From a virus (Duplodnaviria; Caudoviricetes): a stretch of 64,000 nt of DNA. The position numbers were made by a program, and so were the translations under genes. Where the stretch lies: positions 1-64,000 of IMG/VR virus record IMGVR_UViG_3300013121_000038; one strand, given 5' to 3'. Below, piece after piece: positions 9,317 to 48,477 of this stretch (within the stretch, counting starts at the first letter, position 1; each line of letters starts with the position of its first letter). The notes under the pieces are model-generated. The model worked only from the letters and a program-made list of their open reading frames with translations. It made no database searches and had not been told where the DNA came from.

Positions 9317-10492
9317 TTGAAGACGATGAAGACCGCTGGCTTGGTGCTCGACTTCTACGACGACAAGACCGGGAGCATCCTCAAGGAGGTCTGTCCGTCC
9401 ACCGATCGCCTTCCCGAGTCCGTGAAGGTGGCCCACATCCTCTCGCCGCAGGAGCGAGAGATCCTTCGGGACGAGGCCTACGCTCTCATCCTTCACTCGG
9501 ACGACGGGCAGCTCCGCAAGTTCGCCTGCGTCGATGAGGGGAACACCGTCCTCTCGACCCTCTACTTCATGGAGACCTTCACCCAGCTCCCGGTGGAAGC
9601 GGTGAAGGTGGCGGCGGCCAACCTCGCTGCCTTCAACGAGAGCTTCGGTCTCCCAGTCCCTGACATGCTGAAGCTGGCAGCCAAGACAGGCATGTCACGC
9701 AAGCGCGATTCCATGAGCCAGCCTCTCGTCGGTGATGAGGCGGACTGGGCGGCGCGCACCAACCTCGTCTCGACCCGTGGTGGCTCAGACGCCGGCCGCG
9801 TGATCCCGACGGTCAACCAGATGAAGACGGCAGCCGTCGACGTCTCCAAGCTGGAGCCGGAGCCCGTCGTCATGAACAAGACCGCTTCCCGCACCGCTCT
9901 CGGCGGCCGCTTCTCGCTCGACAGCTACTCCGACGTCCAGGACGCCATCCAGTACTTCGACGAGAGCTGGCCTGCCCTCGACCCCGCTTCTCGACACGAG
10001 TTCTCGGTGAAGACGGCGGCGCGCGCCGAGGAGCTCGGCATCGAGGTCCCGGAGCTGATGGCCCGCTACGGCTCGACGCAGTACGCCCCAGACGTGGACG
10101 CCCATCTCGCCAACCGCCGCGCCGTGGCGCCGCAGTTCGAGGAGGTCTGGGACGACCTCCAAGAGAAGCGCGCCATGATCGAGCCGGAGAGCTTCGCCAC
10201 GCTCCTGGCCGAGGCGGACGAGCTCGTCGGGCTCAACTTCGAGTGGGGCGGCTCCGTCATGGACCCCTACTACGCCACCTTCGGCGGCCGCTCCGAGCAG
10301 GAGAAGCTGGCCTGGGCCTGGGAGGGCGCCGACGGCGACAAGATCGACGAGGGCGGGCTGAGAGGCATCGACCAGCAGAAGCTGGCGGAGACCTTCTCGC
10401 CCGACTTCGTCGAAGCCTTCAAGCTCGACCCGGTGACGATCTTCGAGTCCATGCCGGACCAGCACAAGGTCCTCATCTCCAGGATGGTGTGA
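9317..10492 (+). CDS. Putative head-associated protein rich in K-x-A motifs
   Basis: 391 aa, AGGAG RBS; MKTAG, VKVAA, LKLAA, MKTAA, NKTAS, EKRAM, EKLAW. Confidence 0.75.
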   Translation: MKTMKTAGLVLDFYDDKTGSILKEVCPSTDRLPESVKVAHILSPQEREILRDEAYALILHSDDGQLRKFACVDEGNTVLSTLYFMETFTQLPVEAVKVAAANLAAFNESFGLPVPDMLKLAAKTGMSRKRDSMSQPLVGDEADWAARTNLVSTRGGSDAGRVIPTVNQMKTAAVDVSKLEPEPVVMNKTASRTALGGRFSLDSYSDVQDAIQYFDESWPALDPASRHEFSVKTAARAEELGIEVPELMARYGSTQYAPDVDAHLANRRAVAPQFEEVWDDLQEKRAMIEPESFATLLAEADELVGLNFEWGGSVMDPYYATFGGRSEQEKLAWAWEGADGDKIDEGGLRGIDQQKLAETFSPDFVEAFKLDPVTIFESMPDQHKVLISRMV

Positions 10493-10493
10493 C

Positions 10494-10787
10494 ATGAAGA
10501 TCGATCTCATGGACGCCTTCTTCGACGAGCTGGAGAAGATCGCAGCTCTCGGAGAGCCAATGCCTGGTAGTGGGCGGCTACTGCGTCAGCAGCAAGCTGC
10601 CGGGACGGCTCAGCGAGCTTTCAGCCCGGCGCGGGAGACCGGCAAGGACTGGATCCAGAAGCAGGTCGCTGCTGGGCGCATGCAGTCCCCAGCCCACTCC
10701 GCCATGAGCCTGGCCTACAGGCAGCGCCCAGCGGCCGCCGTCGCAGCGGCCGCCAAGCCAGTTCTCCGTGGCGCTCTGAGGCCCTGA
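10494..10787 (+). CDS. Small basic protein with N-terminal FFDELEKIA tag
   Basis: 97 aa, tightly packed in operon. Confidence 0.75.
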   Translation: MKIDLMDAFFDELEKIAALGEPMPGSGRLLRQQQAAGTAQRAFSPARETGKDWIQKQVAAGRMQSPAHSAMSLAYRQRPAAAVAAAAKPVLRGALRP

Positions 10788-10788
10788 C

Positions 10789-11148
10789 ATGCACCAGGCG
10801 ACTCTTCGTGCTTTCGTCGATGAGATGCAGGGCACCCTCATGAAGGAGGCCTTCATCTCGAAGCTCGCCAACATCCCTCCGCCGGCGGCCGGCACGGCTC
10901 CTGGGTTCGGCAGCCGGGCCGCCAACTGGATCGGCAGGCACAAGGAGCACTTGACGCACGGCGCCGAGCTGGCAGGTCTGGGCATCCTCGGGGTCCCAAG
11001 TGCTCAGAAGCTCAGGAAGATTCGCTCCGCCGAAACCTCGCCTGAGGAGAAGCGAACCGCGAAGTACGAGCTCGCCGGCCTCGGGGTCCTGGCGGCGCCT
11101 TCTGCCATCCACCTCGGCCACGCCGCATGGAAGCACTTCCGGGGGTGA
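10789..11148 (+). CDS. Small tagged protein (FVDEM) with duplicated ELAGLG hydrophobic segments
   Basis: 119 aa; ELAGLGILG and ELAGLGVLA. Confidence 0.7.
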   Translation: MHQATLRAFVDEMQGTLMKEAFISKLANIPPPAAGTAPGFGSRAANWIGRHKEHLTHGAELAGLGILGVPSAQKLRKIRSAETSPEEKRTAKYELAGLGVLAAPSAIHLGHAAWKHFRG

Positions 11149-11149
11149 G

Positions 11150-12088: not shown

Positions 12089-12777
12089 AGCTCACGTCCA
12101 AGGCGCGGAACAAGCTCTCCCCATCCACCTTCGTCTTCCCGGAGGAGAGGCGCTACCCGATCCACGACGAGAGCCATGCACGCAACGCCCTGGCGCGAGC
12201 TTCGGGGAAGTCGGAAGAGGGGAAGGTCAGAGCAGCCGTTCATGCCAAGTACCCAGGCATCGGCAAGGAGTCGCAGATCTCGTTCCTGGATGAGCTCGTG
12301 AAGATCTCAGGCATGGACGACGCCATCGGCTGGGCAGGGCAGCAAGGTCAGCGACTCAAGCGCTTCGGTGGCGGGGTTGCGTCGAACGTCGGCAACGCCG
12401 TCGCCTCCTTCGGCACACCTCGTGAGAGCTTGAAGAAGGGCTGGGAGGCCACGTGGCGCCCAGGCGGCCAACCACTGCATCCTCTCTCGAAGGCGCTTAT
12501 GGCCTACGGCGTCTACAACGACGTGCGTCAGGTAGTGCCTGGGCAGGATCCGTCTGGACAGGGTCGGAGCCGTCTCCACCGAGCGGCAACAGCAGTCGGC
12601 GGACAGCTCGGTGGTATCATGAGCGCGCCGTACGGTCTCAGCGGCGGCCTTGTCGGCGGCATGCTCGGGGCCAAGATGGGCGACTTCGCCGGCCGTGCCA
12701 TCGACAAGGTGAGGGGCTTCAAGCGCGTCCCACAGGCTCCACATCTCCCACCTCGCCCAATCGGTCAGCAGGAGTAG
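12085..12777 (+). CDS. DUF6582-like N-terminus, FLDELVKIS tag and Gly-zipper
   Basis: Start MKLTSKARNKL at 12085 (ATGA overlap); FPEERRYPIHDESHARNALAR; C-terminal GLSGGLVGGMLG. Confidence 0.7.
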   Translation: MKLTSKARNKLSPSTFVFPEERRYPIHDESHARNALARASGKSEEGKVRAAVHAKYPGIGKESQISFLDELVKISGMDDAIGWAGQQGQRLKRFGGGVASNVGNAVASFGTPRESLKKGWEATWRPGGQPLHPLSKALMAYGVYNDVRQVVPGQDPSGQGRSRLHRAATAVGGQLGGIMSAPYGLSGGLVGGMLGAKMGDFAGRAIDKVRGFKRVPQAPHLPPRPIGQQE

Positions 12778-12780
12778 CTC

Positions 12781-14940
12781 GTGTCATACGACAACCTTTC
12801 CCTCGGCTACGGCGGCGTCTCGCGCTTCGCGGGACAGCGCGGCCGTACCCAGGACGGCACCAACCGTTCTGGCGTGAGGTATCCGTCTCCCTTCTTCGAC
12901 ATCGCGCACACCTATCTGCCGCCGTCGATGAAGGCGCTGCTGCGGTGGTGCCGGTACTACTACCTCGTCAACCCGCTCATCAACACGGTCATCCACAAGA
13001 TGTCCGAGTACCCGGTGACGGAGATCATCATCGACGAGCAGGACCAGAGGATCAGGGAGAAGTGGGAGACGGTTCTCGGGCAGCACCTGCGGTACCGCGC
13101 GTTCCAGATCGAGGTCGGCCTCGACTACTACACGTACGGCATCTGCATGGTGACGATCCACTTCCCGTTCACCAAGTACCTCATCTGCAAGCAGTGCAAG
13201 CACAAGGAGAAGGCTGCCAAGGTCCACTACAAGTGGCGCAACCTGGAGTACGTCGGCACCTGCGACAAGTGCGGTACGACCGGCCCGCAGACGGTGCTCG
13301 ACTTCTACGAACGCGACCTGCGCCGCATCCGTCTCATGCGGTGGAACCCCGAGTACATCAACGTGGACCCGGGGTTCGGCGGAGCCGACCCCATCTACAC
13401 CTTCGAGCTGCCTCTCCAGCTCAAGAACGACCTCATCCTCGGCAAGAAGACGGTGCTCGACACCGTGCCGGACATCTTCGTCGAGGCCCTGCGGCGCAAC
13501 AAGTACATCCGCTTCGCCGACGACAACATCTTCGTCTTCCGCCGCCCCATCATCAGCCAGAAGGACAATGGCTGGGGCATGCCGCTCATCTTCCCGGTCC
13601 TGAAGGATGCCTTCTACCTCCAGGTCCTGAGGAAGGCGCAGGAGGCCATCGCTCAGGAGCACATCATCCCGCTCCGCGTCCTCTTCCCTCAGGCCGGCTC
13701 GGCGACCTCAGACCCGTACACCAACATCGACCTCAACGCCTGGAAGAGCCGCATCGAGGGCGAGATCGCCAAGTGGAAGTACGACAACAACTACATCCCC
13801 ATCCTGCCGGTCCCCATCGGCAACGAGACCATCGGCGGGGATGGGAAGGCTCTCGGCCTCTACCAGGAGATGCAGGTCTGGTCAGACCAGATCATCAACG
13901 GCATGGGCGTGCCGCTGGAGTTCGTGAAGGGCGGCCTCCAGTACTCGGGCTCGAACGTCTCGATGCGCATGCTGGAGAACATGTTCATCGGATACCGCCT
14001 CGATCACGAGAACATGCTGAACAACTTCGTCATCCGTCGCATCGCCAACTTCATGCAGTGGCCAGTCGTCAAGGCTCACATGAAGCGGTTCAAGATGGCG
14101 GACGACCTCCAGCGTTCGGCCTTCTACTTCCAGCTCAACCAGGCGCAGAAGATGTCCGACCAGACGCTCATGGCGGAGGTCGACCAGGACTCGGCGGTGG
14201 AGGATGAGCGCAAGAAGCTGGAGCTCGACAAGCAGCTCGAAGCGATGCGCAAGCAGCAGCTCGCTCAGGCCGCCATTCAGGGCGAGGTCATGCTCGTTCA
14301 GAGTCGCTACCAGGCCAAGGCCCAGGAAGCGATGATGAAGAACCAGGCGGCGCTCCAGGAGGCCCAAGGTGGTCAGATGGGCGGAGCTGGCATGCTGGGC
14401 CCGGACCAGATGGCAGGAGCCGGTGCCGGCGGCGGAGCAGGCGGCATTCCGCAGGACATGCTTGGCGCTCCTGGTGGGCAGCCTGGTGGTGGGGCTCAGC
14501 CAGGCGCTGGTGCTGAAGGACCTCCTGGCATGCAGGGTCAGCCGACTCCTGGCGCCGGGCAAGAAGGCGAGATGATCGACGGCCAGAGCGTCGATCCGTC
14601 CATGCCAGAGGGCTCTACCGTCTCTCCAGAGAACGCTCAGCAGGCTCCTGGCGACGGCATCCCCGCCACAGCGGCGTCCCCTCTCCAGATGGGCCAGAAG
14701 GGCGGCGGCTACAACCTGCTCTACCTGGCGAAGAGGGCGGCGAACGCGCTCAAGAAGATGGAGCCGATGCAGGCCAACATGGAGCTCAACCGCATGCGGA
14801 TGGGCAATCCTGGCCTCGGCAACCTCGTCCTCCAGATCATGCAGAAGGAGCGCGGCTCGCAGAAGGATCCGCTCAACCCGATGCAGAGCCCGCAGCCTCA
14901 GCAGAAGCCCACTCGCCGTAAGTCTTCGACTGGGGTGTGA
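12781..14940 (+). CDS. Probable portal protein with Zn-ribbon insert and G/Q/P-rich tail
   Basis: Portal-like order of elements: NPLINTVI..MSEYP, WGMPLI, IINGMGVPLEF..GGL.YSG, then coiled coil. Inference from pattern. Confidence 0.7.
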   Translation: MSYDNLSLGYGGVSRFAGQRGRTQDGTNRSGVRYPSPFFDIAHTYLPPSMKALLRWCRYYYLVNPLINTVIHKMSEYPVTEIIIDEQDQRIREKWETVLGQHLRYRAFQIEVGLDYYTYGICMVTIHFPFTKYLICKQCKHKEKAAKVHYKWRNLEYVGTCDKCGTTGPQTVLDFYERDLRRIRLMRWNPEYINVDPGFGGADPIYTFELPLQLKNDLILGKKTVLDTVPDIFVEALRRNKYIRFADDNIFVFRRPIISQKDNGWGMPLIFPVLKDAFYLQVLRKAQEAIAQEHIIPLRVLFPQAGSATSDPYTNIDLNAWKSRIEGEIAKWKYDNNYIPILPVPIGNETIGGDGKALGLYQEMQVWSDQIINGMGVPLEFVKGGLQYSGSNVSMRMLENMFIGYRLDHENMLNNFVIRRIANFMQWPVVKAHMKRFKMADDLQRSAFYFQLNQAQKMSDQTLMAEVDQDSAVEDERKKLELDKQLEAMRKQQLAQAAIQGEVMLVQSRYQAKAQEAMMKNQAALQEAQGGQMGGAGMLGPDQMAGAGAGGGAGGIPQDMLGAPGGQPGGGAQPGAGAEGPPGMQGQPTPGAGQEGEMIDGQSVDPSMPEGSTVSPENAQQAPGDGIPATAASPLQMGQKGGGYNLLYLAKRAANALKKMEPMQANMELNRMRMGNPGLGNLVLQIMQKERGSQKDPLNPMQSPQPQQKPTRRKSSTGV

Positions 14941-18208: not shown

Positions 18209-21200
18209 ATGCACAGTGCGAGGATGAGGCAGCCGGTGCCCAGCGACGCCAAGATGGGTGTTCTCATCGAGAACTCCATCAACAAGATCAAGGAGCTGTT
18301 TGCTGACGGCTACCTTGGCAGCTCGCAGCGTTCCCTTCGGCTGAAGGATGTCTGGGCCGAGGATGAGCTGCACTCCAGCGATGTGCAGGGCCAGCTCCAC
18401 GCCAAGCTCAACGATCAGACGTGGGGAGTGCCCATCAAGGCCACCATCGAGCTGATGGACCATCAGACCGGCAAGCCGATCGGCAAGCCGTCGACGGTCA
18501 CACTCATGCGGTTGCCGAAGCTGACGGACCGTTTCTCCTTCATCATCGACGGCGGGGAGTATCAAGTCGACCACCTTCTTCGTCTTCGATCTGGTGTGTA
18601 CACCCGCATCAAGAGGAACGGCGACCTCGTCTCCGAGTTCAACCTCGCGCGAGGCGGCAACAAGAACTTCGGGCTCTACCTCGACCGCAAGAAGAGCCTC
18701 GTCAACTTCCAGCCCAAGTCCTCCGAGGCCAAGGTCCCAGCCTACCCTCTGCTGAAGGTGATGGGCGTCTCGGACGAAGCCATCGAGCAGAGCTGGGGCA
18801 AGGCCGTCTTCGCTGCCAACCGGATCACGAACCCGGAAGCGGAAGAGAAGGTCCTTCGGCGCTTCTACGAGAAGACTGGCGGCAAGGACCTGGGACGCGC
18901 TCCCTCTCTGGAAGAGGTGAAGCAGCACGTCTACAGCTACTTCGACGATACTGCGCTCCGCCCTGAGACGACGAAGGTCACTCTCGGCAAGCCGTTCACC
19001 AAGGTGACCGGAGACGCGCTCTTGTCGGCGTCTTCCAAGCTCATCAAGTTGGAGAAGAAGGAAGTCGATGCAGATGATCGCGACTCCCTCATCTTCAAGG
19101 ACATCGTCCACATCGAAGACTTCATACCGGAGCGTCTCGGCAAGAGCCGTGGCCAGATCAAGCAGAAGGTCCGGAACGCGATCAACAACAAGACCAGCAT
19201 CTCCGAGATTCTCCAGGGTGGTGACATCTTCAAGCGTCCGATCGCCGACTTCTTCATGAAGGGTGGCAACGTCTCGGAGCGTGGGGACCAGACCAACCCT
19301 GTGCAGATGCTCTCAGGCAACTTCAAGACGACCCTCGTCGCCAAGGACTACGGCGGCATCAAGGACGCCGAGAAGCTGGGCGACGAGATGCGCGCCATCA
19401 ACCCCAGCCACTTCGGGTTCCTCGATCCGATGCACACGCCGGAGTCAGAGCGCACCGGCATCACCCTGCACCTCGGCTCAGGTGTCGTGAAGGACGGCAA
19501 CGAGCTGAAGACCCACGTCTACAACCTGAAGACCGGCAGGAACGAGTTGGTGCCGGTGCAGGACTTCCACGAGAAGACGGTCGTCCTCGCCGATCAGATC
19601 TCGTGGAAGAACGGCAAGCCGGTGCCTCATGCTGAGACGGTCAAGGTCAAGCTGCCTGGTGGCGACATCGGAATGCGAGCGATGTCAGAGGCCCACTACG
19701 TCATGCCGACGGCGAAGTCCATGTTCTCATGGGCCTCGAACCTGATTCCGTTCCTCCAGAACGATCAGGGCAACCGAGCCTCGATGGCGGACAAGCAGAT
19801 CGAGCAGGCCATCTCGCTGAAGTACCGAGAGGCGCCACTGGTCCAGTCCTCCGTCCACCAGGACAACCCCGAGTACACCTTCGAGAAGCACCTGGGGAAG
19901 AACATCGCTTCGCACAAGGCCCCAGTCGCCGGCGAGGTGGTGAAGGTCACGCCTGATGAGATCCACATCAAGAACGGCAAGGAGACACACAAGGTCCAGC
20001 TCTACAATCATTTCCCGCTGAACGATCCTGCGGCGATGCTGCACTCGACGGTGCTCGTGAAGCCTGGGGACCAGGTCAAGGCGAATCAGGTCTTGGCTGA
20101 CTCCAACTTCTCGAAGAACGGAACCCTGGCGCTCGGCACCAACCTGCGAGTCGGCTACATCCCGTACAAGGGCTACAACTTCGAGGACGGCATCGTCATT
20201 TCGGAGGGTGCATCGCAGCGGCTCACGTCGGAGCACCTGCACAAGCTGAAGCTCGACATCGACACGAAGATCGATCGGACCAGCAAGGCCTCCTGGAAGG
20301 CCCACTCGTCCCGGAAGGCCGCAGGTCTGGGCAAGGATCAGTGGGATGCGCTCGACGATGACGGAGTCGTGCGTGAGGGGACCGTCGTCCGGCCTGGGCA
20401 GATCCTCGTCACTGCCCTCACCCCCAACGTCCAGAAGAGCGACGTCCGCGCCAAGGCCTTCGGTCCGTCTCGTGCTGGCAAGGCCTGGAGAGACAAGTCT
20501 CTGACCTGGGACTCCGACTACGTCGGCACAGTGGCGCGCGTGGTGAAGTCGCCGAATGGCGGCGTCGTCCACGTCCATATCAAGACCGAGGAGCCGGCTG
20601 AGATCGGCGACAAGCTCTCAGGCCGACACGGCAACAAGGGCATCATCACCAAGATCCTGAAGAACGAGGAGATGCCGTTCACCGTCGATGCGGCGACGGG
20701 AGAGAGACGGCACATGGACGTGCTACTCAACCCATCAGGCATCCCGACCCGCATCAACCCTGGCCAGGTGCTGGAGACAGCCGCTGCGAAGATCGCTGAG
20801 AAGACTGGGAAGCCGTACTTCGTGAACAACTTCACCGGCGCTGGCCATGACTACCGCCAGATGGTGGTGGACGACCTCAAGAAGCATGGCCTCACCGACG
20901 AGGAGCTGGTCTACGACCCATCGGACGTCCGCAAGCCGCTCGGTTCGGTTCTCGTAGGCCCGCAGCACCTGCTGAAGCTGAAGCATCAGGTCGAGAAGAA
21001 GCTGGTCGTCCGTGGCGGCGAGTCAGACCTCGAAGGCCGGCAGTACGGATACGACTACGACATGCAGCCCTACAAGGGCGGAGCGCATGGCGGACAGGGC
21101 TTCGGCGCTCTGGAGCTCTACTCGCTCCTCGGCCACAACGCCCGCCACAACCTGCGCGAGATGTCGACCTACAAGTCCGACATGCAGGGCCCAGACTTCT

Positions 21201-36082: not shown

Positions 36083-37027
36083 ATGGCCGATGATCTCTCT
36101 CGTTTCCTCACCTCCGGCGGCGGGCGCCATGCTTCTCTCACGCCCGAGCGGCTGGAGCTCATGGGGAAGGAAGCCGCGACGCTTCTCGTAGAGAAGGGTG
36201 TGCCTCTCAACGAGAGCATCTCGAAGCTCGCCGGCGCAGAAGCCGACATCAACGCCGAACAGGTGAAGAGGGTGGTGGAGTTCGCCAACACCGCCGCCTA
36301 TCTCGCCATGCACGACAAGAACAAGATGGCCGGCGAGGAGTCGAGCTACCCCCAGTTCGAGCTGGCTGACACCAACCGGATCCTCGGAGACCTCTCCGAC
36401 GGCTCCCGCCCAACCCAGATCACCCAGACGGACCTCTCCTACGGCCGCGCGCCGGAGAAGAGGAAGATCTCCAGCCCGAAGCTGGAGGCCGCTCTGGAAG
36501 AGCTCTTCCTCGGCCCGGCCGGGACGGAGAAGCGGGCCAGCCTGGACTTCACTCCGGAAACCGTCACCGACCACATCATGACGACGAAGCAGAACCTCGT
36601 CTCCATGCGCTCCCACCTGGAGTCCTCGGGCGAGCAGCTCGACCTTCTCCGGAAGGAAGCGGATGCCGAGTACTACGACGCCGTGAAGCGTCATCTTCTG
36701 GACGGCGGCAGCTTCGTGGACGTGGTGCGCGGCGCCGCAGAGGTCTTCGACGACTACGACCTCATGAAGGAGGCCATGGTTCCGTACGTCGCGCGCCTCT
36801 TCAAGGAGAAGGTCGCGCAGCCAGAGGCCCTCTTCCACCAGCTCCAGAGCCTGGAGAAGGTGGCCCACCGAGAGGTCCACAAGGACCACCCATTCGTGGC
36901 TGGTCTCGGCGCCATCGTCGCGCTCGACGAGGAGATCACCAAGGTGGCGTCGGCCCTCGGCGAGGTGGATGCCAGCCTCGCCCGGGTGAAGACCGCCATC
37001 CGGGAGGAGTTCCTTGCTCGTCCGTGA
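36083..37027 (+). CDS. Putative prohead core protein
   Basis: 314 aa, helical; EKRAS, EKVAH, TKVASA; first gene of the head operon. Confidence 0.7.
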   Translation: MADDLSRFLTSGGGRHASLTPERLELMGKEAATLLVEKGVPLNESISKLAGAEADINAEQVKRVVEFANTAAYLAMHDKNKMAGEESSYPQFELADTNRILGDLSDGSRPTQITQTDLSYGRAPEKRKISSPKLEAALEELFLGPAGTEKRASLDFTPETVTDHIMTTKQNLVSMRSHLESSGEQLDLLRKEADAEYYDAVKRHLLDGGSFVDVVRGAAEVFDDYDLMKEAMVPYVARLFKEKVAQPEALFHQLQSLEKVAHREVHKDHPFVAGLGAIVALDEEITKVASALGEVDASLARVKTAIREEFLARP

Positions 37028-38030
37028 GCTGAGCAAGCACGCCGCTGCCTCGGCTCGCCTCAGGGCCCAGGCCCAGGGGATGGAGAAGGACGCGGCACTC
37101 GGGAAGTTCATCGGCGCGACGGTCGGGACTGGCCTCAAGGCCGCCGGCCGTTTCGCCGCTGATTCTCTTGCTCACCCCATCGCGAAGGGACTTCCGCGAG
37201 TCGGCGCCGCGCTAGGGCTCGCGGGCGTCGTGAACAAGGGCCGGGCGCTCTACCACGGCTTCAACGAGAACGCTCAGCGAGCCATGCTCGGTCTCGGTGC
37301 GCCCAAGACGACTCTTGCCTCGGTGAACGACATGAACCTGCCAGAGCTGATGAAGACGGCTTCTGCCGCCGATCCGGAGTCGATGAAGAAGATCGCGGCC
37401 TGCATCGACCTTCTGGAGCACTACGAGCCGGAGGCCGTGTCAGAGCTGACCGCCGACTTCCGTGCCTACGCCGAGCACGTCAACGGGAAGATGAAGACGG
37501 CGGCATCCGCCACCGACTCGTGGGCGCAGAAGGCGTGGGGTGGCACCAAGGAGATCGGAGTCGGCGCCGCCAAGACCCTGGCCGGATCTCTCCTCGTCGG
37601 CATGGGTCTCGCCGCATCGACCGATCTCCTTCGGATGGCGAAGACCAAGCTGACCGAGAGCCGGAACTTCAAGCGGATGATGGACGCCAACAGCAACCTG
37701 CGCAGCAAGTCGCCGGCGGAGCTGCGGCAGGCGTTCAAGTCCTTGCAGAAGTTCGCGCCGGATGTCGCCTCCGATCCGCTCGCAGCCGGGTCGATGGTGT
37801 GGCACCTCACGAGCTCTCTCGAAGGCGACCACTACAAGCCGCTGCGTGAGGCCGTGACGCTCCAGAAGGAGATGGCGCGTCGCTCCTTCCTGCCGGAGCC
37901 GAAGATCGACTTCGGTCTCAGCGACAAGAACAACCGGCCGCCTCGTCATCAGCAGCAGGCTCCTGGCACAGCCAGCGGCGCCGCCCCGTACAACCTGCCG
38001 AACTCCTCTACGTCGAAGACGCATCCGTGA
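37014..38030 (+). CDS. Putative internal head protein with hydrophobic segments
   Basis: 338 aa; MEKDAA, MKTASA and MKTAASA precede Gly/Ala-rich segments. Confidence 0.7.
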   Translation: MLVRELSKHAAASARLRAQAQGMEKDAALGKFIGATVGTGLKAAGRFAADSLAHPIAKGLPRVGAALGLAGVVNKGRALYHGFNENAQRAMLGLGAPKTTLASVNDMNLPELMKTASAADPESMKKIAACIDLLEHYEPEAVSELTADFRAYAEHVNGKMKTAASATDSWAQKAWGGTKEIGVGAAKTLAGSLLVGMGLAASTDLLRMAKTKLTESRNFKRMMDANSNLRSKSPAELRQAFKSLQKFAPDVASDPLAAGSMVWHLTSSLEGDHYKPLREAVTLQKEMARRSFLPEPKIDFGLSDKNNRPPRHQQQAPGTASGAAPYNLPNSSTSKTHP

Positions 38031-39721
38031 TCGAGAAGGAAGTCATCTTCTTCGGCCATACCGAGGCCGGCATCTTCGCGCAGGCGCTTTTCCCCACGCG
38101 GATGGAGAAGTACGCCGGCGCGGTGCTCGACTCATGGGACACGGCGCCCAGCATCAGGAAGTTCATCCAGACGCTGACGCCGAATGACCGGGAGCAGAAC
38201 GCCTACGTCTTGGTGAACGCTCTCGGCGCCGGCGAGTTCTTCGGCCCCAACATCAACGCCGACTACTTCCCGTGGGACTCGCTCGCTCATGAGGGCGACG
38301 ACTACGGCTACAAGACCTTCTACAACGCTCACGCCTTCCAGCACCACGCGAACAAGGACACCGCACGCGCGTTCGGGGTTCCTGTCGTTTCCGTCCTGAA
38401 TCCGCGCATGAAGCGCGTCGAGCTCATCATCAAGCTCGACCGCGCGGCGGCGCGCGCCCAGGGCGCCGACGGCATCATCACCCGCATCGACAACGGCGAG
38501 TTCCCAGACGTCTCGATGGGATGCAAGGTCCCGTACGACGTCTGCTCGATCTGCGCCCACCGCTCGAAGACGCGGAACGACTACTGCCAGCACATGCGGC
38601 CGCCGGAAGAGCTCCGGCACATCTACGGCCCGAACAAGATCCTGCCGGATGGTCGCAAGATCTACGTCATCAACACCATCCCCCGCTTCTTCGACATCTC
38701 CTTCGTCTTCATCGGCGCCGACAAGACGGCCAAGGTGATGGCGAAGCTGGCCTCCAATGGTGCGCATGTCTGCCTGGGTGAAGTGTGTGCGATACCTGCC
38801 GGAGCAGGAGCGACTGGGCCTCAACTGTATGGACCCAGCGGCAACCCTCTCGATGTTCGAGACCTTCACAAGGTCGCCTCCGCCTGCGACGACCGGACCG
38901 GGCCATGTGGCCGCCGATGCGCTGACTGCTCCGAGCGAGACGCCTGCGAAGAGGAGAAGCTCGCTTCCGCCTTCCATGTGAAGTCGGCCGGCAAGAAGAT
39001 TGCCGAGATCGTGAAGGACGTCCCAGCCGGTGTCTTCTCGATGAAGCGCCTGCCGGAGATGGAGAAGCGGGAGCCTGACATCTCCCGGGAGGACCTCGAC
39101 CGGATGTCTGAGCGTCCTCTTGCGTCATCCCTCGGCGCCGCCGCGCGGATGGGGATCGTCCTCAAGCCCCACGAATTCCAGAGGGTTGTGCTCAAGCGGA
39201 TGGGAGAAGATGCGCTGATCTCCCACCTCGACAAGCACCACCACGTCTTCCGCGAGGTGCCGGACGCCGGCGAGAGCCTCTCCTGCGACGTCCGCGACCC
39301 GCTCGACGAAGTCTTCGACCTCTTGAAGAAGTACATCCGGTCACGTACCGCTCTTGGACCGTCTTTCCAGATGCGGGTGATGGTGGTCGGGAAGTCGAAA
39401 AATGTCCTTCCCACTAGAACCCCAATCGGCAACTCTCTTCTCGACAAGGTGAGCGCCGCGTACAACAGCTACCGGCGTGGAGTTCTGGAGAAGGTCTCGC
39501 AGGTGATCGAAGAAGTGAAGAGCGACCCAAGGTTGGCGGAAGCGGTTCTCGGAGACGGACTCAGCATGATGTTCAAGACGGCCAGCTCCGAGATCCTCTT
39601 TCCCGACTCGGTGAAGTACATGTTGGGCGCTCATCTGCAAGATCGTGGTCTGCTGTGCAAGTCGGCCGCTGGCGCGGTCGTTCTCGATGACTCGGTCTTT
39701 TCGGAGACCAACTCGGCCTAG
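38027..39721 (+). CDS. Prohead maturation protease (HK97/assemblin-like) with Cys-rich inserts
   Basis: FQHH, DVSMGC..PYDVCSIC...CQH, FFDISFVFIGAD; lies upstream of scaffold and capsid genes. Confidence 0.75.
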   Translation: MIEKEVIFFGHTEAGIFAQALFPTRMEKYAGAVLDSWDTAPSIRKFIQTLTPNDREQNAYVLVNALGAGEFFGPNINADYFPWDSLAHEGDDYGYKTFYNAHAFQHHANKDTARAFGVPVVSVLNPRMKRVELIIKLDRAAARAQGADGIITRIDNGEFPDVSMGCKVPYDVCSICAHRSKTRNDYCQHMRPPEELRHIYGPNKILPDGRKIYVINTIPRFFDISFVFIGADKTAKVMAKLASNGAHVCLGEVCAIPAGAGATGPQLYGPSGNPLDVRDLHKVASACDDRTGPCGRRCADCSERDACEEEKLASAFHVKSAGKKIAEIVKDVPAGVFSMKRLPEMEKREPDISREDLDRMSERPLASSLGAAARMGIVLKPHEFQRVVLKRMGEDALISHLDKHHHVFREVPDAGESLSCDVRDPLDEVFDLLKKYIRSRTALGPSFQMRVMVVGKSKNVLPTRTPIGNSLLDKVSAAYNSYRRGVLEKVSQVIEEVKSDPRLAEAVLGDGLSMMFKTASSEILFPDSVKYMLGAHLQDRGLLCKSAAGAVVLDDSVFSETNSA

Positions 39722-39781: not shown

Positions 39782-40579
39782 ATGCCGATGGATCCACAGC
39801 TCGCTGCCATCTACGGGACCAACCAGGACGAGAGCGACGTCGAGAAGCTCGCCGCCGCCGAGCTCGCCGAGGAGCTCGCAGACGAGGGCGAGGAGGTCGA
39901 GGAGTCCGACCTCTCCGACGAGGAGGCCGAGGAGCTCGCCCAGCAGCTTCTCGCCGCCGAGGGCGAGGAGGGCGCGGAGCAGGGTGACGAGGAGGACGAG
40001 GAGGGCGCCGCCGTCGAGGAGCCGGGCGAGGAGGAGCAGGAGAAGCTCTCCGAGGCCGACTACCTGGGCCGCGTCATGGCCCACGCCTACACCCAGGAGC
40101 TCCGCAAGATCGCCGCCGTCGGCGACTCCAGCGCCTACGAGGGCAAGGACACCGCGTCCCGCGCCCAGAAGGTCGGCGGCTGGGCTCGTCGTCAGGGCCA
40201 CCGTGCTGCCGGCGCCGCCAAGGCCTTCGGCAAGCACTTCAAGGGCGGCGACAAGTGGTCCCTGAAGGGCCAGCACGCCGGCAAGACCTGGGGTGCTCGC
40301 GCCGCCGTCGGTGCGGCTGCCGGTGCTGCCGGCTACGGCGCCTACCGGAAGTTCAAGGGCAAGGGCAAGAAGAAGCAGTCCGCCGCCGAGCCGTCGGCCC
40401 TCGACATCCTCGCCGAGCGCCGCGCGCTGGAGATCCTGGCCGAGAACGGCATCGACCCGACCCAGGAGCAGGAGAAGACCAGCGCCTCCGAGCCCGAGAT
40501 GGAGGCCCTCGGCAACGCCGTCGAGCAGCGGGCGTACGCGCTGCTCCAGGCCAACGGCTACATCCAGGAGCAGGAGTAG
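39782..40579 (+). CDS. Acidic scaffold-like protein carrying a basic Gly/Ala cassette
   Basis: E-rich ends; YTQELRKIAA ... KKQSAA flank a cationic segment. Confidence 0.7.
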   Translation: MPMDPQLAAIYGTNQDESDVEKLAAAELAEELADEGEEVEESDLSDEEAEELAQQLLAAEGEEGAEQGDEEDEEGAAVEEPGEEEQEKLSEADYLGRVMAHAYTQELRKIAAVGDSSAYEGKDTASRAQKVGGWARRQGHRAAGAAKAFGKHFKGGDKWSLKGQHAGKTWGARAAVGAAAGAAGYGAYRKFKGKGKKKQSAAEPSALDILAERRALEILAENGIDPTQEQEKTSASEPEMEALGNAVEQRAYALLQANGYIQEQE

Positions 40580-41033: not shown

Positions 41034-42599
41034 ATGAAGACCAAGCTCGCCGGTCACCTGCCACTCCAGGACGCCATCGCGCGGACCATCGAGGAGGCGC
41101 GCGAGAAGATGAAGCTCGCCTCCGATGCCTGCGAGGGGGAGGACAAGGAGAAGGTGAAGAAGCTGGTGAAGTTCGAGAAGAAGGAGCACGGCCACATCCC
41201 CTCCGAGAAGGAGGAGCGGGCCGAGTACGAGAAGAAGAGCTCCATCATCGACACCGACGACCCGGAGGAGGTGGAGAAGCTGGCCGCCTCGCTCGACTTC
41301 CTCGCCGAGAAGATCGCCGGCGACTCCGTCACCATCGGCGGCGAGTCGCGTCAGGGCGGCCAGGTCCTCGCGACCATGAACGCCGTCGGCGGCACCCAGC
41401 CCTACAAGAAGGACTCGTCCAAGAGCCACAACGTGCCGACGTCGACCGGCATGAAGTCGACGAAGGACAACCCAGGCGCGTCCACCGCCGTCCCCACGGA
41501 CGACGAGCGGGCCCCTGGCGGCACCGGGGCCAAGTACCCCGCCAAGGGCGTCCTCAAGACCGGCGGCGTGAAGAAGACGGCCATGGACTACCACCAGGCC
41601 CGCGCGGTCGGCCAGGCCGTCGGCCTCGGCACCCATCTCGTGGGCGGCGCCATCGGCTACCAGAAGGGCAAGGAGCAGCACGCCCGAGGCGAGAAGCACA
41701 CCTTCGGGGTGCCGCAGGGCGCGGCCGCCCTCTTCCTCCCAGGCGGCGCCGGCTACCAGCTCGGCCGCTACATGGGCCACAACGCGGCCGGCGGCGAGAA
41801 GAAGAAGGGGAAGAAGAAGCACAGCTCCGTCGAGCGGCTCCAGCTCGCGCTGGCAGCCCAGACCGGCATCGTCACCCCGGAGATGGCTGCCGACATGGAG
41901 AAGGACGCCGGCAAGGTCACCGACGCCCTGAAGTCCATGGGCGGCAAGGCGCGCGCCGCCGGCGGCCGCGTCATGGAGCTCCTCAAGGGCGGGAAGTTCG
42001 GCGCTGGCAACCGCGCCAGCAACTACCGGCCTGGTGCGAGAGGCACCATCCCTTCGAGCGAGGCGTGGAAGTCGCTCGGGACTCGTGCTGCGGCCGGAAC
42101 GGCTGCCGTCGTCGGCGGGAAGAAGGCCTACGACAAGCTGAAGAAGAAGGGCAAGAAGAAGGCCGCCGGCGTCGAGGCCGTCGACTACATCCTCTCCAAG
42201 ATCAGCGCCGTCGAGAACGGTGGCGAGAGCCCGCAGGGTGGTGAGCAGCTCAGCAACACCGCCCCGGTGCCCTCCAACGCCGGCCGTGAGCTCATCCGGA
42301 ACAAGGACGGCATCAAGAACGTGACCAAGGCCCAGGCCAAGTCCCCTCGCAAGAAGGAGCTGGCCGAGGTCCTGACCGAGCCTGCCATGAGCGCGGCTCA
42401 CGACTCCAAGGTCAACGAGAACCTGCGGAACGCCGCGAAGGGCGGCGTGAAGATCGCAGCGGCACGGGTGTTCCTCCAGAAGATCGCTTCGGAGGGCTGC
42501 CAGTGCTCTGGCGCCGGCAAGTGCCGGTTCTGCCAGATGCAGGAGAAGGCTGCCGCACTTCGCGGCAACGGAGCCGAGGCCGTCGCCTCGGAGGCATGA
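41034..42599 (+). CDS. Modular head/scaffold polyprotein
   Basis: 521 aa; more than 10 K-x-[AS] motifs, internal GGES.QGG repeat, C-terminal CQC...CRFC. Confidence 0.75.
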   Translation: MKTKLAGHLPLQDAIARTIEEAREKMKLASDACEGEDKEKVKKLVKFEKKEHGHIPSEKEERAEYEKKSSIIDTDDPEEVEKLAASLDFLAEKIAGDSVTIGGESRQGGQVLATMNAVGGTQPYKKDSSKSHNVPTSTGMKSTKDNPGASTAVPTDDERAPGGTGAKYPAKGVLKTGGVKKTAMDYHQARAVGQAVGLGTHLVGGAIGYQKGKEQHARGEKHTFGVPQGAAALFLPGGAGYQLGRYMGHNAAGGEKKKGKKKHSSVERLQLALAAQTGIVTPEMAADMEKDAGKVTDALKSMGGKARAAGGRVMELLKGGKFGAGNRASNYRPGARGTIPSSEAWKSLGTRAAAGTAAVVGGKKAYDKLKKKGKKKAAGVEAVDYILSKISAVENGGESPQGGEQLSNTAPVPSNAGRELIRNKDGIKNVTKAQAKSPRKKELAEVLTEPAMSAAHDSKVNENLRNAAKGGVKIAAARVFLQKIASEGCQCSGAGKCRFCQMQEKAAALRGNGAEAVASEA

Positions 42600-42609: not shown

Positions 42610-43005
42610 ATGCCCGACAAGATCAGCAACGTCCAGGTCGCCCAGCTCCAGAAGCTGGCGAGCACCACCCTCCGGAAGCTGGCGGGGGAGAACAAGACGC
42701 TCCGCGACGAGAACGGTGACCTGAAGACCAAGGTCGCCGCCTTCGAGAAGAGGGCTCGCGCGGAGAAGATCGCGTCCGAGATGGAGTCCAAGGGGCTCAA
42801 CCTCGGATCCACCTTCGAGCAGAAGGTGGCAGAGCTGCTGGAGAACGACCGACTCGACGTCGTCGAGGAGGCCGTCGGTCTGGCGGCGCCGCAGATCAAG
42901 CTCGCCTCCGTCCACGAGGACGGCGTCGAGGTGGAGAGCACGGGAGACGACGCCGCCGACAGGGCGACGCAGGTCTTCGCAGCAGGGCTCGCCTCCCTCG
43001 GCTGA
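42610..43005 (+). CDS. Coiled-coil scaffold-like protein
   Basis: 131 aa; QKLAS, EKIAS, IKLAS. Confidence 0.7.
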   Translation: MPDKISNVQVAQLQKLASTTLRKLAGENKTLRDENGDLKTKVAAFEKRARAEKIASEMESKGLNLGSTFEQKVAELLENDRLDVVEEAVGLAAPQIKLASVHEDGVEVESTGDDAADRATQVFAAGLASLG

Positions 43006-43575: not shown

Positions 43576-44715
43576 ATGAGCGTGCCAGCCAAGGTCCTGA
43601 ACGACCTGTTCTTCGAGAAGGTCGCCACCCAGGAGGGCAAGGACAAGATCGCCGAGTTCGGCGGGACGTACATCCGCGACCGACTCCGCGAGGTCTCCTT
43701 CGCCCGCAAGGTCCTCCCCCCGCAGCCCGTCCAGCGGTCCGAGTGCCAGCGGTCCGTCAACCACGACACCCTGGTCAAGATCGTCGACATCGAGCCCAAC
43801 TCGAAGGCGATGGCCATGGGCTTCCGTGGCCAGCCCACGGCGCGCTTCATCCGCGCGCCGCGCTACGAGATCCCCTTCTTCACGATCTCGTCCGAGAAGT
43901 TCGAGAAGACGGAGCAGGAGCTCCTCGCCTACGAGATGCCCATCACCAAGATCATCGAGGAGAACTCGGTGAAGGACATCCAGAGCATCGAGGACCGCCA
44001 GTTCCTGCTCTTCATCGAGGCCGCCGTCCAGGGCTTCCAGACCGACGCGAACGGAGGGGCCACGGCGTTCAACCACACGAACGTCAACGCCGGCTCCGTG
44101 AAGTCGGCCTCCGTGGTGAAGGGTGAGGGCGCCCTCACCGCCACGACCGAGGACTTCACCGTCTACCCCGTCCTCAAGACGGACTTCATCAAGATGAAGA
44201 AGCTCCTGCACCGCCGGCACCTCCGCGCGGAGCGGATGCTTCTCACCGAGCCGGACTACGACGACATCTCGTCGTGGACCATCCAGGACGTCGGCATGAC
44301 GATCGCCGGCGAGACCTCCACCGAGGGCTGGAAGAGCGACACGGTGGTGGGCCTGAAGATCATCCGCACCATCAAGACCGAGATCCTCCGCGAGGGCAAC
44401 ATCTACTGCTTCACCGCGCCGGAGTTCTGCGGCCGCTTCTACGTCCTCAACCAGACCAAGTTCTACATCGACAAGATCGCGAACCTGATCACCTGGCAGT
44501 CGTGGGAGGACATCGCGATCGGCATCGGCAACATCTCGTCGATCGTGAAGATGGAGCTCTACCCCGGCTCCGTCACGCCTGGTGAGGAGACCGCCATCGG
44601 CGGCGGCATCGACTACCGCGCGGCCCTGCCCGTGGACGAGCTCGACCCGCTCCTCGCCCCGACCAACAACAAGGTCGACCAGGGCCTGAAGTACCCGAAC
44701 GTCTCCCAGTTCTAG
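43576..44715 (+). CDS. Major capsid protein (HK97 fold)
   Basis: 379 aa, extreme codon bias, IRDRLREVSFARKVLPP, KDIQSIEDRQFL; position in head operon; followed by a strong hairpin. Confidence 0.8.
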   Translation: MSVPAKVLNDLFFEKVATQEGKDKIAEFGGTYIRDRLREVSFARKVLPPQPVQRSECQRSVNHDTLVKIVDIEPNSKAMAMGFRGQPTARFIRAPRYEIPFFTISSEKFEKTEQELLAYEMPITKIIEENSVKDIQSIEDRQFLLFIEAAVQGFQTDANGGATAFNHTNVNAGSVKSASVVKGEGALTATTEDFTVYPVLKTDFIKMKKLLHRRHLRAERMLLTEPDYDDISSWTIQDVGMTIAGETSTEGWKSDTVVGLKIIRTIKTEILREGNIYCFTAPEFCGRFYVLNQTKFYIDKIANLITWQSWEDIAIGIGNISSIVKMELYPGSVTPGEETAIGGGIDYRAALPVDELDPLLAPTNNKVDQGLKYPNVSQF

Positions 44716-44735: not shown

Positions 44736-44779
44736 TGAGGGGAGGAGGAGCCACAACTCCTCCTCCCCTCATCGCTTTC
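44736..44779 (+). terminator. Terminator after the MCP gene
   Basis: Perfect 15-bp stem TGAGGGGAGGAGGAG/CTCCTCCTCCCCTCA, then TCGCTTT. Confidence 0.7.
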
Positions 44780-44798
44780 CAGGGGGTAGGATGCCGCC

Positions 44799-45095: not shown

Positions 45096-45098
45096 GGC

Positions 45099-46443: not shown

Positions 46444-46452
46444 GGAGCCAGC

Positions 46453-46593
46453 ATGGCCATCGCAGCGTTCAAGGTCGCCGAGTTCAGCACCGCCCTGGAT
46501 CTCCAGAAGTTCGTGGCGACTGGGGCGCCCGTCGTTGTCGTCTCCATCGTCTTCAACGGCGCCAGCGGCAAGTACGTCCTGTTCTACACCTAG
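46453..46593 (+). CDS. 46-aa protein
   Basis: Hand-translated MAIAAFKVAEFSTALDLQKFVATGAPVVVVSIVFNGASGKYVLFYT; TAAGGAG RBS. Confidence 0.65.
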   Translation: MAIAAFKVAEFSTALDLQKFVATGAPVVVVSIVFNGASGKYVLFYT

Positions 46594-46606
46594 CCAGGGA
46601 GCGGCC

Positions 46607-47233
46607 GTGGACGACCTCACCTTCTATCAGGCGCTGCGCGGTCCAAGGGCCGAAGGCGGCGAGGCATGTCTGCGCTCCCTCATGAAGAAGACTGCCCAGA
46701 CAACGCCGGTCAAGAAGCCGATCTCCGTCCAGGACACTCATGCCATATCCAACGACATCCAGGCTCGGATGGCGGAGGTCGTGAAGAGGCTGAAGGCGAT
46801 CAAAGCCGGCAAGATCAAGAAGGGCTCGGCCGAGGAAGCGAAGAAGCAGGTCCTCGACCGACTCAAGGCTCATGCTCCTGAGCTCATCGGCGGCGGTGTC
46901 GGAACCGTGGCGGGTGGTCTGTACGGTTATCTTGCGTCCCGCCGCAAGGATCCGAAGAAGCCGTCGGCCATGGAAGAGGACGCCGCCAAGATGCTGCGGG
47001 CGTACGAACGTGCCGAGCAGGAGATGAAGGAAGAGGGCAAGAAGCCAGGCTTCCCGCACAAGATGCGTGGTGTCTACGCCCGTGCCTTCGCCGACGCCTC
47101 GAAGGTGATGAAGGAGCATCCAGTCGCCACCGGCGCGATGTATGGCGGCGCCGCTGGTTCGGCCGGGGCAGGGCTCGGTCGTATCGCCTACGACCTCTAC
47201 AACAGCAGAATCGGAAAGGGCCTCGACGTATGA
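46607..47233 (+). CDS. Gly-zipper protein
   Basis: GTG start at 46607; LIGGGVGTVAGGLYG and GAMYGGAAGSAGAGLG. Confidence 0.65.
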   Translation: MDDLTFYQALRGPRAEGGEACLRSLMKKTAQTTPVKKPISVQDTHAISNDIQARMAEVVKRLKAIKAGKIKKGSAEEAKKQVLDRLKAHAPELIGGGVGTVAGGLYGYLASRRKDPKKPSAMEEDAAKMLRAYERAEQEMKEEGKKPGFPHKMRGVYARAFADASKVMKEHPVATGAMYGGAAGSAGAGLGRIAYDLYNSRIGKGLDV

Positions 47234-48477
47234 ACCACGAAGCTCAACTCGCCAAGACCCTCGGAGACGACGAGCAGGAGAAGCTCGCGTCCCACTTTGC
47301 TTCCTACACCGTCGACGAGCTCGCGTCTCTCCTGAAGGAGAAGACTGCGCTCGCTCCGATGCCTGCTCCTGCGGCGACCCAGGGCGATCTCATGCGTGAG
47401 CGCACCAAGGGCGGGCGGATGATCAACACGCTGAAGAATACCTTCAAGCCGCCAGTGCTGGCGTCGGTGAAGATCGCCGACGAATGGGGCCGGCAGCTAG
47501 CGAACGAGGACATCGAGAAGAACGCCTTCATGGATCAGGCGCTCGGCCTCGCCGTCGGTCATCACTATGGCAAGGAGCAGAAGAAGCGTGGCGAGAACTA
47601 CAGCTTCGGAGTTCCGCAGGGCGCCGCTGCTCTCTTCCTGCCTGGGGGAGCCGGCTACCAGATCGGCCGCTACATCGGCCACAACGACAAGAGCGTGAAG
47701 AAGGGCAAGAAGAAGAAGGCCAGCGCCCAGCTCGTCTACGAAGCGCTCATGGAGAAGATCTCTACCGGCGCCGTCGGCAACCTCGGCGGCCAGATGCCGA
47801 GCCTCACACCGAAGATGCCGACTGCTCCCAAGGTCGGCGCCGGCAACATGATGCCGCGAATCGGAACGGTCGGAGGTGGCGGGCTCGGCAAGACCGTGAC
47901 GGGCGCGGCCAGGCTGCGCGCGGAAATGGACAAGGTGGCCTTCTGGGGCTCCGGCACCATCGCCAAGGGCATCAACTGGGCCGCCCCTCATCTCGCCAAG
48001 GCCACCAGCGCCCTCGCGTCGGCTGGGCCAGGCAAGTCCGCTCTCATCGGCGCCGGCGTGGGTGCTGCCGGCGGTGCCGCGCGGCACGCGCTGTCGGGCA
48101 GAGACCCCCAGACGGGGCAGAAGCGCACCACCCTGCTAGGTTCCATGGCCGGCGGCGCCGCTCTCGGTGGCGCGGCTGGCGCTGGTCTCAGTGCAGGAGC
48201 CAGCCGCTTCCAGGGCTCTGCGCTGCATGGGCGCATGACCAGCGGCAACTTCAAGTTCAACACCCAGCCTCCGGCTGCGGCCGCAGGAGCAGCCGGCGCC
48301 GCCGGGCCGACGCCTGTCGCGCAGCCGGCGCCAGTCGGTCCAGGCGGACTGCGTCCGAATCCAGAAGGCGCTCCGGCACACTGGCGAAACGCTCCGCCTC
48401 CGCCGGCTGCTGGTCCTCAGGCAGCCGGTCCACAGCCAACGCCAGTGAAGAAGGGCTGGTTCGGGCTCGGCAGGTAG
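47230..48477 (+). CDS. Modular Gly-zipper polyprotein
   Basis: 415 aa; EKLAS, EKTA, VKIA, EKNA, KKAS, EKIS and DKVA separate distinct modules. Confidence 0.75.
   Translation: MNHEAQLAKTLGDDEQEKLASHFASYTVDELASLLKEKTALAPMPAPAATQGDLMRERTKGGRMINTLKNTFKPPVLASVKIADEWGRQLANEDIEKNAFMDQALGLAVGHHYGKEQKKRGENYSFGVPQGAAALFLPGGAGYQIGRYIGHNDKSVKKGKKKKASAQLVYEALMEKISTGAVGNLGGQMPSLTPKMPTAPKVGAGNMMPRIGTVGGGGLGKTVTGAARLRAEMDKVAFWGSGTIAKGINWAAPHLAKATSALASAGPGKSALIGAGVGAAGGAARHALSGRDPQTGQKRTTLLGSMAGGAALGGAAGAGLSAGASRFQGSALHGRMTSGNFKFNTQPPAAAAGAAGAAGPTPVAQPAPVGPGGLRPNPEGAPAHWRNAPPPPAAGPQAAGPQPTPVKKGWFGLGR

Follow-up and report, generated by a model that had tools for sequence, protein, structure and literature searches.

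Which signal is encoded by the dense K-x-A motifs in the head proteins of a large tailed phage? The question is raised by positions 9,317 to 48,477 of the IMG/VR virus record IMGVR_UViG_3300013121_000038 (Caudoviricetes), for which the initial annotation had proposed that K-x-[AS] motifs form the cleavage code of a prohead protease encoded at 38027–39721 (+). The window, i.e. the whole stretch of DNA analysed, comprises the first 64 kb of the 102,311-bp single-contig genome of an uncultured phage with a guanine-plus-cytosine (GC) content of ~63%. In total, 133 genes were called from the third-position GC and curated by hand. Nine named proteins (3,708 residues), namely the protease and the products of the genes starting at 9317, 25736, 36083, 37014, 39782, 41034, 42610 and 47230, constitute the head set, and the other 124 predicted proteins (27,818 residues) served for comparison. 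We consider it probable that the phage's own prohead protease recognizes K-[LIVT]-A-[SAG] (abbreviated K-h-A-s) and cleaves at this motif. The scissile bond would most likely be the one after Ala, with Lys at P3, an aliphatic residue or Thr at P2, Ala at P1 and Ser or Ala at P1′. The i, i+2 spacing of the fixed residues accords with that of the T4, phiKZ/SPN3US and herpes cleavage motifs, read as P3 and P1.

The peptides on which the proposal had been founded are all present in the proteins concerned, and their accumulation in head proteins persists after correction for composition. In the nine head proteins, 34 copies of K-[LIVT]-A-[SAG] were counted compared with 2.4 expected from shuffled sequences; the other 124 proteins contain 7 copies, with 9.8 expected. 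Its strict form, K-[LIVT]-A-[SA], is found 29 times in the head set and 4 times in the comparison set. When each protein was shuffled separately, p was ≤ 0.004 for seven of the nine head proteins, the observed and expected numbers being 5 and 0.10 (9317), 5 and 0.23 (25736), 3 and 0.18 (37014), 4 and 0.14 (38027, the protease), 2 and 0.10 (39782), 4 and 0.40 (41034) and 4 and 0.08 (42610). In an unbiased scan for over-represented words covering the whole proteome, KLAS, EKLA, KIAA and EK.A were likewise near the top. The codons at the motif include all four for Ala and come from both Ser boxes; because of this codon diversity, selection is seen to act on the protein, and a repeat at the DNA level is ruled out.

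The motif is narrower than the K-x-[AS] of the initial annotation. Arg never replaces Lys in the head set. K[LIVT]A followed by any other residue is still enriched there (17 compared with 5.6 expected), K[non-LIVT]A[SAG] (the class of KRA, KDA and KEA) is weakly enriched (15 and 8.8, p 0.03), K[LIVT]S[SAG] is marginal (4 and 1.05, p 0.03) and K-x-S is not significant (19 and 16.4). Middle residues of the KRA/KDA type, originally counted as part of the code, are not clearly supported by these numbers, nor is Ser as third residue as in KIS and KQS; K-x-S and K-[charged]-A were consequently dismissed as parts of the code. The prohead protease of T4 recognizes L/I-x-E and cuts after Glu, those of phiKZ and SPN3US recognize S/A/G-x-E, and the sites of herpes assemblin conform to V/L/I-x-A|S with an aliphatic P3. 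None of these consensus sequences qualifies as the actual code here, since neither [SAG].E (76 compared with 82 expected) nor [VLI].AS (4 and 5.1) is enriched in the head set, and the mild excess of [LI].E (50 and 34) is far below that of K-h-A-s.

This mild excess of [LI]-x-E and the largely helical, Ala/Lys/Glu-rich character of the carrier proteins would both suit the view that the motif is a by-product of helix or coiled-coil periodicity in Ala/Lys-rich sequences and has no specific function. We regard this as highly improbable. Of the 24 possible orders of the residue classes in the motif, only one is enriched; 22 other orderings gave 0–3 occurrences each in the head set, with the exception of KhsA, which overlaps KhAA. 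Shuffling within windows of 10–30 residues (2,000 shuffles) yielded a mean of 1.5–1.8 and a maximum of 8, even for windows of 10 residues, compared with the 29 sites observed, so that the whole-protein shuffles, the window shuffles and the 22 permutation controls together rule out a composition artefact. Moreover, conserved islands of the motif lie in non-helical, unalignable linkers, and the motif persists over a GC content of 0.48–0.68 and down to Bacillus phage G (see below).

Is the product of 38027–39721, a protein of 564 residues, the protease that it had been taken for? The available data support this assignment. The protein has three matches in the PHROG database, of which only the best carries an annotated function (PHROG 18299 'head maturation protease', E 2e-8). 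An AlphaFold model built on 32 homologues contains three folded parts (residues 40–229, 338–511 and 520–557) separated by segments with a predicted local distance difference test score (pLDDT) below 50. The pLDDT profile suggests an N-terminal propeptide (~1–30), a catalytic domain (~40–232), a linker (233–337), a helical domain (338–511) and a tail (520–564). Structural comparison of T4 gp21 (pdb-code: 5JBL) with residues 47–233 of the model by VIA-align resulted in a Z-score of 10.3 and a root-mean-square deviation of 2.9 over 135 residues. The corresponding Z-scores were 7.3 for the protease of varicella-zoster virus (pdb-code: 1vzv) and ~5 for those of herpes simplex virus type 2 (HSV-2), human cytomegalovirus (HCMV), Kaposi's sarcoma-associated herpesvirus and Epstein-Barr virus. 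The top three Foldseek matches were all 5JBL (E 0.04). His106, His107 and Ser163, the latter being the Ser of the (D)VSMGC motif highlighted earlier, are invariant in the 32 homologues and are candidate catalytic residues. On the evidence of the model, the protein is predicted to be a serine protease of the T4 gp21/herpes assemblin fold, the group covered by MEROPS clan SH (S21, S77, S78 and S80). A link to solved proteases or Pfam families at the sequence level was rejected for want of matches; the closest named relative is gp19 of Bacillus phage G, which matches by the protease domain alone (35% identity over residues 73–243).

The motifs had also been said to flank the catalytic domain of the protease itself, and islands are indeed found before and after this domain as well as 47 residues from the C-terminus. 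In the alignment of the 32 homologues they appear as conserved K-x-A islands within disordered, otherwise unalignable linkers, which are the pLDDT<50 segments between the three folded parts. The first site, K28-Y-A-G (38108–38119, +; family consensus F-E-K-T-A-G/A), marks the predicted end of the N-terminal propeptide; Lys28 is invariant and placed in the pLDDT<50 segment 14–37. K240-L-A-S (38744–38755, +; GADKTAKVMAKLAS) lies at the end of the catalytic domain within the pLDDT<50 segment 230–265. K282-V-A-S (38870–38881, +; pLDDT<50 segment 280–287) forms an island in the unalignable linker, where Lys282 and Ala284 are kept in at least 90% of the homologues amid indel-rich flanks. K311-L-A-S (38957–38968, +; pLDDT ~60) is situated just N-terminal of the C-terminal domain and is followed by KSAG (319) and KIAE (324), the segment 324–337 again having a pLDDT below 50. 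Finally, K517-T-A-S (39575–39586, +) occupies the pLDDT<50 segment 512–519, 47 residues from the C-terminus, in a position reminiscent of the herpes 'maturation site'; Lys517 is kept in at least 90% of the homologues. In some relatives the protease linker accommodates inserts of 250–780 residues bounded by K-h-A-S. Such fused homologues were discarded as evidence of separate genes joined at the sites, as the insert segments match no other protein of the phage.

The catalytic domain shows additional peculiarities. Cys173, Cys176, Cys187 and His189 (CSIC...C-x-H; 38540–38600, residues 173–189) are nearly invariant, which suggests a structural zinc site, and in distant relatives 50–70 residues are inserted between the CxxC and CxH elements. 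A Cys-rich knot, GPCGR.C..C....C, is found in the linker between the sites at 282 and 311 and is common to close relatives. Five related loci (L013, L018, L019, L066 and L069) contain protease open reading frames (ORFs) of 931–1,674 residues, in which the catalytic domain is interrupted by inserts of 360–750 residues at fixed points, i.e. past residues 73, 170 or 187 of the query; L019 contains three of them. These inserts may be inteins or inserted domains.

Which proteins would this enzyme cut? Eight to nine proteins carry 1–5 strict sites each. One predicted substrate is encoded at 9317–10492 (+; probable start at 9326, MKTAG), with strict sites at nucleotides (nt) 9605, 9671, 9824, 9878 and 10010. 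Its model consists of an N-domain, a disordered linker and a C-domain (low pLDDT at 125–170 and 180–184), and three of the five strict sites fall in or border the disordered central linker. In this family (231 homologues in the search, 33 of them aligned) the N-terminal MKTAG is conserved, and NQMKTA is near-invariant and directly followed by a hypervariable insert of 0–150 residues; KLAA is likewise placed upstream of a variable insert. Conservation up to the Ala with free variation downstream points to a cut after Ala. Foldseek revealed no known fold for the 9317 product. Neither this protein nor the predicted substrate of 25736–28045 (+; 769 residues; five strict sites at nt 26213, 26714, 27482, 27554 and 27647; p<0.002) has a homologue in cultured phages or a characterised homologue at all, so that the placement of all carriers in the inner head, as in the initial annotation, is putative.

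The scaffold-like helical protein of 131 residues encoded at 42610–43005 (+), just upstream of the capsid gene, bears four strict sites (nt 42652, 42730, 42766 and 42898). Its EKIAS at residue 53 is well preserved in 59 homologues (Lys 0.92, Ala 0.98), and cutting at all four sites would yield peptides of ~10–45 residues. Three strict sites (nt 37353, 37389 and 37494) are present in the predicted substrate of 37014–38030 (+; 338 residues). The predicted substrate of 39782–40579 (+; 265 residues) contains an N-proximal EKLAAA at residue 22, where Lys (0.97) and Ala (1.00) are conserved in 35 homologues. Past this site extends a ~70-residue E/D-rich acidic tract, reminiscent of the acidic internal peptides remaining in T4 heads, and then a basic Gly/Lys-rich half. 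A predicted multi-site substrate of 521 residues, encoded at 41034–42599 (+), harbours four strict sites (nt 41112, 41277, 42450 and 42480) and 10 loose motifs compared with 3.1 expected, together with Gly-rich hydrophobic and poly-Lys cassettes.

For two of the proteins originally listed as carriers the result is mixed, as the products of 36083 and 47230 have one strict site each and neither is individually significant under the strict motif. The former (36083–37027, +; 314 residues) contains KVAS at nt 36941 plus several K-h-A, the loose motif being found 5 times compared with 0.61 expected. Its EKVAH at residue 259 is conserved in 60 homologues (Lys 0.97 and Ala 0.85 versus 0.43 for the flanks). 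The latter (47230–48477, +; 415 residues) is paralogous to a portion of the 41034 product and is a weak candidate (1 site compared with 0.23 expected); its EKLASH at residue 18 (nt 47281) is N-proximal and thus fits a propeptide. Both paralogues have a common cassette of ~50 residues (GKEQ..RGE..FGVPQGAAALFLPGGAGYQ.GRY.GHN, then KKGKKK), and modules of a similar kind, poly-Lys plus helix, are seen again in the 39782 product. The composition of the Gly-rich hydrophobic stretches in the 41034 and 47230 products suggests membrane-active segments.

The major capsid protein (43576–44715, +; PHROG 2522, E 5e-11) presents a different picture. The peptides EKVAT (residue 15) and DKIAE (residue 24), considered as sites by the initial annotation, exist at its N-terminus and KIAE is even invariant in 59 homologues. 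The residue after Ala is Ser, Ala or Gly in only 3% of them, and the whole N-terminus is conserved, not K-x-A alone. As neither EKVAT nor DKIAE fits the strict motif, cleavage of the capsid protein is doubtful.

A six-frame scan detected a further small protein (10494–10787, +) with the N-terminal tag F-F-D-E-L-E-K-I-A-A (nt 10518) and a strict site at nt 10536. Related tags of the form [F/L]-x-[D]-E-[L/I]-x-K-I-[A/S], which end in the K-I-A motif, are N-terminal at nt 10518, 14963, 30301 and 49382 and internal at 12283, and the small proteins bearing them are otherwise unrelated. The tag has the appearance of a capsid-targeting sequence combined with a cleavage site.

The longer tag around the motif, F-x-D-E-L-x-K-I-[AS], resembles a loading peptide in several proteins, and this raises the alternative that K-h-A is an uncleaved docking or targeting motif which binds the scaffold, the portal or the inner surface of the capsid and of which repeated copies load cargo by avidity. 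An absolute requirement for Lys, never Arg, would suit a binding contact, and some conserved sites are located within folded helices. Nevertheless, the bracketing of the protease's own catalytic domain and the position in disordered inter-domain linkers would be unexpected for a docking element, and small residues on both sides of the putative scissile bond with hypervariability right past the Ala are typical of cleavage sites. Targeting and cleavage are moreover compatible, as the targeting peptides of T4 end in a cleavage motif (PMC9958956). We thus judge docking as a substitute for cleavage to be unlikely as a general explanation; for particular sites, especially those in folded helices, docking either alone or combined with cleavage is possible. 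The strict preference for Lys over Arg might equally reflect a covalent modification or cross-linking site (acylation, methylation or isopeptide formation) with A-[SA] as the context for the respective enzyme. Such a function appears very improbable given that PHROG and Pfam searches identified no modifying enzyme in the head module, that the highest motif density is reached in linkers and scaffold-like regions and not in the protein of the capsid shell, and that neither the flanking of the protease domain nor the near-N-terminal placement would have a rationale.

Does the motif accompany the protease in other phages? A search with the protease retrieved 105 related IMG/VR stretches, of which 80 loci were kept (protease identity 32–68%, GC 0.48–0.68, contigs up to 209 kb). 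Each locus contains 3–23 strict sites compared with a mean of 0.5–2.8 for the permuted patterns, and the count is clearly above the permuted maximum in all but three near-identical loci, which are at or near that maximum. The nearest cultured phages, Vibrio phages D69, D181 and D148 and Salmonella phage Arash, are distant. In Arash, six K-h-A are clustered in gp220 and four in gp225, and a further cluster is placed just past the protease domain of gp222. The motif is also enriched in the head module of D69 (7 compared with 2.4 expected); its protein 268 has seven sites and its protease two past the protease domain. In Bacillus phage G, VKTAA, EKVAS and LKIAS flank the domain of gp19, and the locus has 9 strict sites compared with 1.3 expected and a maximum of 6 in 500 shuffles.

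The relatives contribute 956 distinct strict sites, from which an extended preference could be derived. Their logo displays Leu, Met or Phe at P5, Glu at P4 (26% of the sites, 3.7-fold over background), the core of Lys at P3, Leu, Thr, Val or Ile at P2 and Ala at P1, then Ser (53%) or Ala (47%) at P1′ and Ala at P2′ in 35%. No preference is discernible past P2′, the flanking preferences being confined to P6–P4 and P1′–P2′, and the extended consensus reads [L/M/F]-E-K-[L/T/V/I]-A-[S/A]-A. In the ORFs of the relatives the site density peaks at residues 20–40 (9.0 and 6.5 per 1,000 versus ~2.5 elsewhere), which is what N-terminal propeptides would yield.

These data also bear on whether the sites might be cleaved by another protease, of host or phage origin, or at another bond, e.g. 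after Lys. Lys-directed proteases are common and the placement of the scissile bond is putative. However, the motif co-occurs with the protease family across phages of Salmonella, Vibrio and Bacillus/Lysinibacillus hosts, an Ala two positions past the Lys followed by small residues fits P3, P1 and P1′ for this protease fold, and PHROG or Pfam searches with 29 window proteins revealed no other protease. A different enzyme or bond is therefore improbable in our estimation. As regards the original claim that the protease cuts at K-x-A/S across the head proteome, its core is supported by the protease fold, the invariant Ser163 and His106/His107, the conserved linker islands and the recurrence in relatives; K-x-S and the non-hydrophobic middle residues are not.

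Based on these structural and sequence features, the following scenario for head maturation by the Lys/Ala-directed protease is proposed. The protease precursor would co-assemble with the scaffold-like and internal proteins into the procapsid. Upon activation it would shed its own N-terminal propeptide of ~30 residues, then detach the catalytic domain from the C-terminal helical domain at sites 240, 282 and 311 and clip its own last 47 residues at site 517. It would further trim N-terminal propeptides of ~15–30 residues from several proteins and divide the scaffold-like protein (42610), like the proteins with multiple sites (9317, 25736, 37014 and 41034), into domains or peptides. The cutting would thereby clear the capsid interior for the DNA and free mature internal or ejection proteins.

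Processing of multiple head substrates by a protease of the gp21/assemblin fold is known; the specificity proposed here departs both from the Glu-directed cleavage by T4 and giant phages and from the aliphatic P3 preferred by the herpes enzymes. Self-cleavage and propeptide removal have been described for T4 gp21 (PMC9958956), which is the best fold match of the phage enzyme and whose substrates are gp22, gp23, gp24, gp67, gp68, IPI-III and Alt. As in T4 (PMC9958956), numerous core and internal proteins would be processed by a single enzyme, which would also trim propeptides, degrade the scaffold and cleave itself. Both systems would have in common the recognition by two residues at i and i+2, but the fixed residues are Lys and Ala here and the Glu rule of T4 is unsupported in this phage. 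In addition, the present protease with its 564 residues has a long C-terminal extension, which gp21 lacks. With herpes assemblin (MEROPS S21; HSV UL26, HCMV UL80a) it shares the fold class as well as a predicted P1 Ala and P1′ Ser. The layout also resembles that of the herpes precursor, consisting of protease domain, linker sites, C-terminal helical domain and a site near the C-terminus, the scaffold role of residues 338–511 being putative. In contrast to herpes, P3 is an obligatory Lys instead of an aliphatic residue, and at least 8 proteins with ~30 sites compare with few substrates there. Numerous head and ejection proteins are substrates of the phiKZ (gp175) and SPN3US (gp245) proteases, and a propeptide often contains several cleavage sites; for SPN3US, a Ser preference at P1′ has been reported (PMC10052503). 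The protease search did not return these phages.

A more far-reaching reading, which we offer tentatively and to which we would assign somewhat less than even chances, is that a widespread clade of large phages runs head maturation on the previously undescribed specificity of Lys at P3, Ala at P1 and Ser at P1′, with a UL26-like protease-scaffold polyprotein, equipped with release-like and maturation-like sites, liberating cargo modules inside the capsid. This clade would embrace uncultured phages of 100–210 kb together with Vibrio phage D69 and Arash, phage G being a more distant member. The cargo modules would comprise acidic peptides, DNA-binding cassettes of the poly-Lys type and membrane-active segments rich in Gly.

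If the Lys/Ala rule is correct, the mature virion proteome could be predicted from the sequence alone by means of K-[LIVT]-A|[SA], including the propeptides, the removal of the scaffold and the internal or ejection proteins that are released. This would hold for a large group of phages which has hardly been studied and whose members would also package an RNA polymerase of the bacterial type. The rule would establish a third specificity class beside the Glu-directed T4 and phiKZ proteases, represented by a phage enzyme nearer to herpes assemblin in its Ala|Ser preference and protease-scaffold layout, and would bear on the shared ancestry of capsid maturation in tailed phages and herpesviruses. 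The cleavage prediction is directly testable in the cultured relatives Arash, Vibrio phage D69 and phage G.

Several observations weigh against cleavage by the prohead protease at these sites. Two of the five strict sites of the 9317 product (residues 94 and 229) are part of confidently folded helices, as is the invariant KIAE of the capsid protein, and on account of such positions some conserved K-x-A may serve structure or binding. Many individual sites are not conserved by position in the alignments and turn over, such that positional conservation of every site was rejected in favour of conservation of some. Concerning the enzyme, the equivalence of His106, His107 and Ser163 to the catalytic residues of gp21 is putative; no Pfam protease family matched the protease product at E ≤ 0.01, and a sequence-level PDB search found no solved protease. 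The published virion proteomics of Arash (PMC10585845) comes without a processing analysis, its supplement consisting of annotation with no peptides, and the multi-omics paper on phage G gives no cleavage sites. Our literature search found no published K-x-A cleavage rule and no processing data for Arash or phage G.

Regarding its genomic setting, the protease gene belongs to a head-morphogenesis module together with the portal (12781–14940; weak PHROG portal matches), the large terminase (33034–34836), the scaffold-like gene 42610–43005 and the capsid gene 43576–44715; the tail sheath (50459–53782) is a further landmark in the window. A bacterial-type single-chain β-β′ RNA polymerase of 2,115 residues is encoded at 18209–24556 (+; Pfam Rpb2_6 5e-55, Rpb1_2 2e-28, Rpb1_5 1e-21). 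Its ORF is embedded in the structural module and is devoid of strict K-h-A-s sites. In the giant phages phiKZ and SPN3US, a multisubunit-type RNA polymerase is packaged in the virion (PMC10052503); in the present phage the polymerase gene is located within the structural module. In Arash virions, the homologous RNA polymerase β subunit is the protein with the most spectra (PMC10585845), and by this analogy the enzyme encoded here is probably packaged in the virion as well. The gene 24557–25726 (+) begins right at the stop codon of the RNA polymerase gene, far from the tail genes, and its product contains a Phage_base_V/type VI secretion system spike domain of the oligonucleotide/oligosaccharide-binding (OB) type (Pfam PF04717, E 3e-6).

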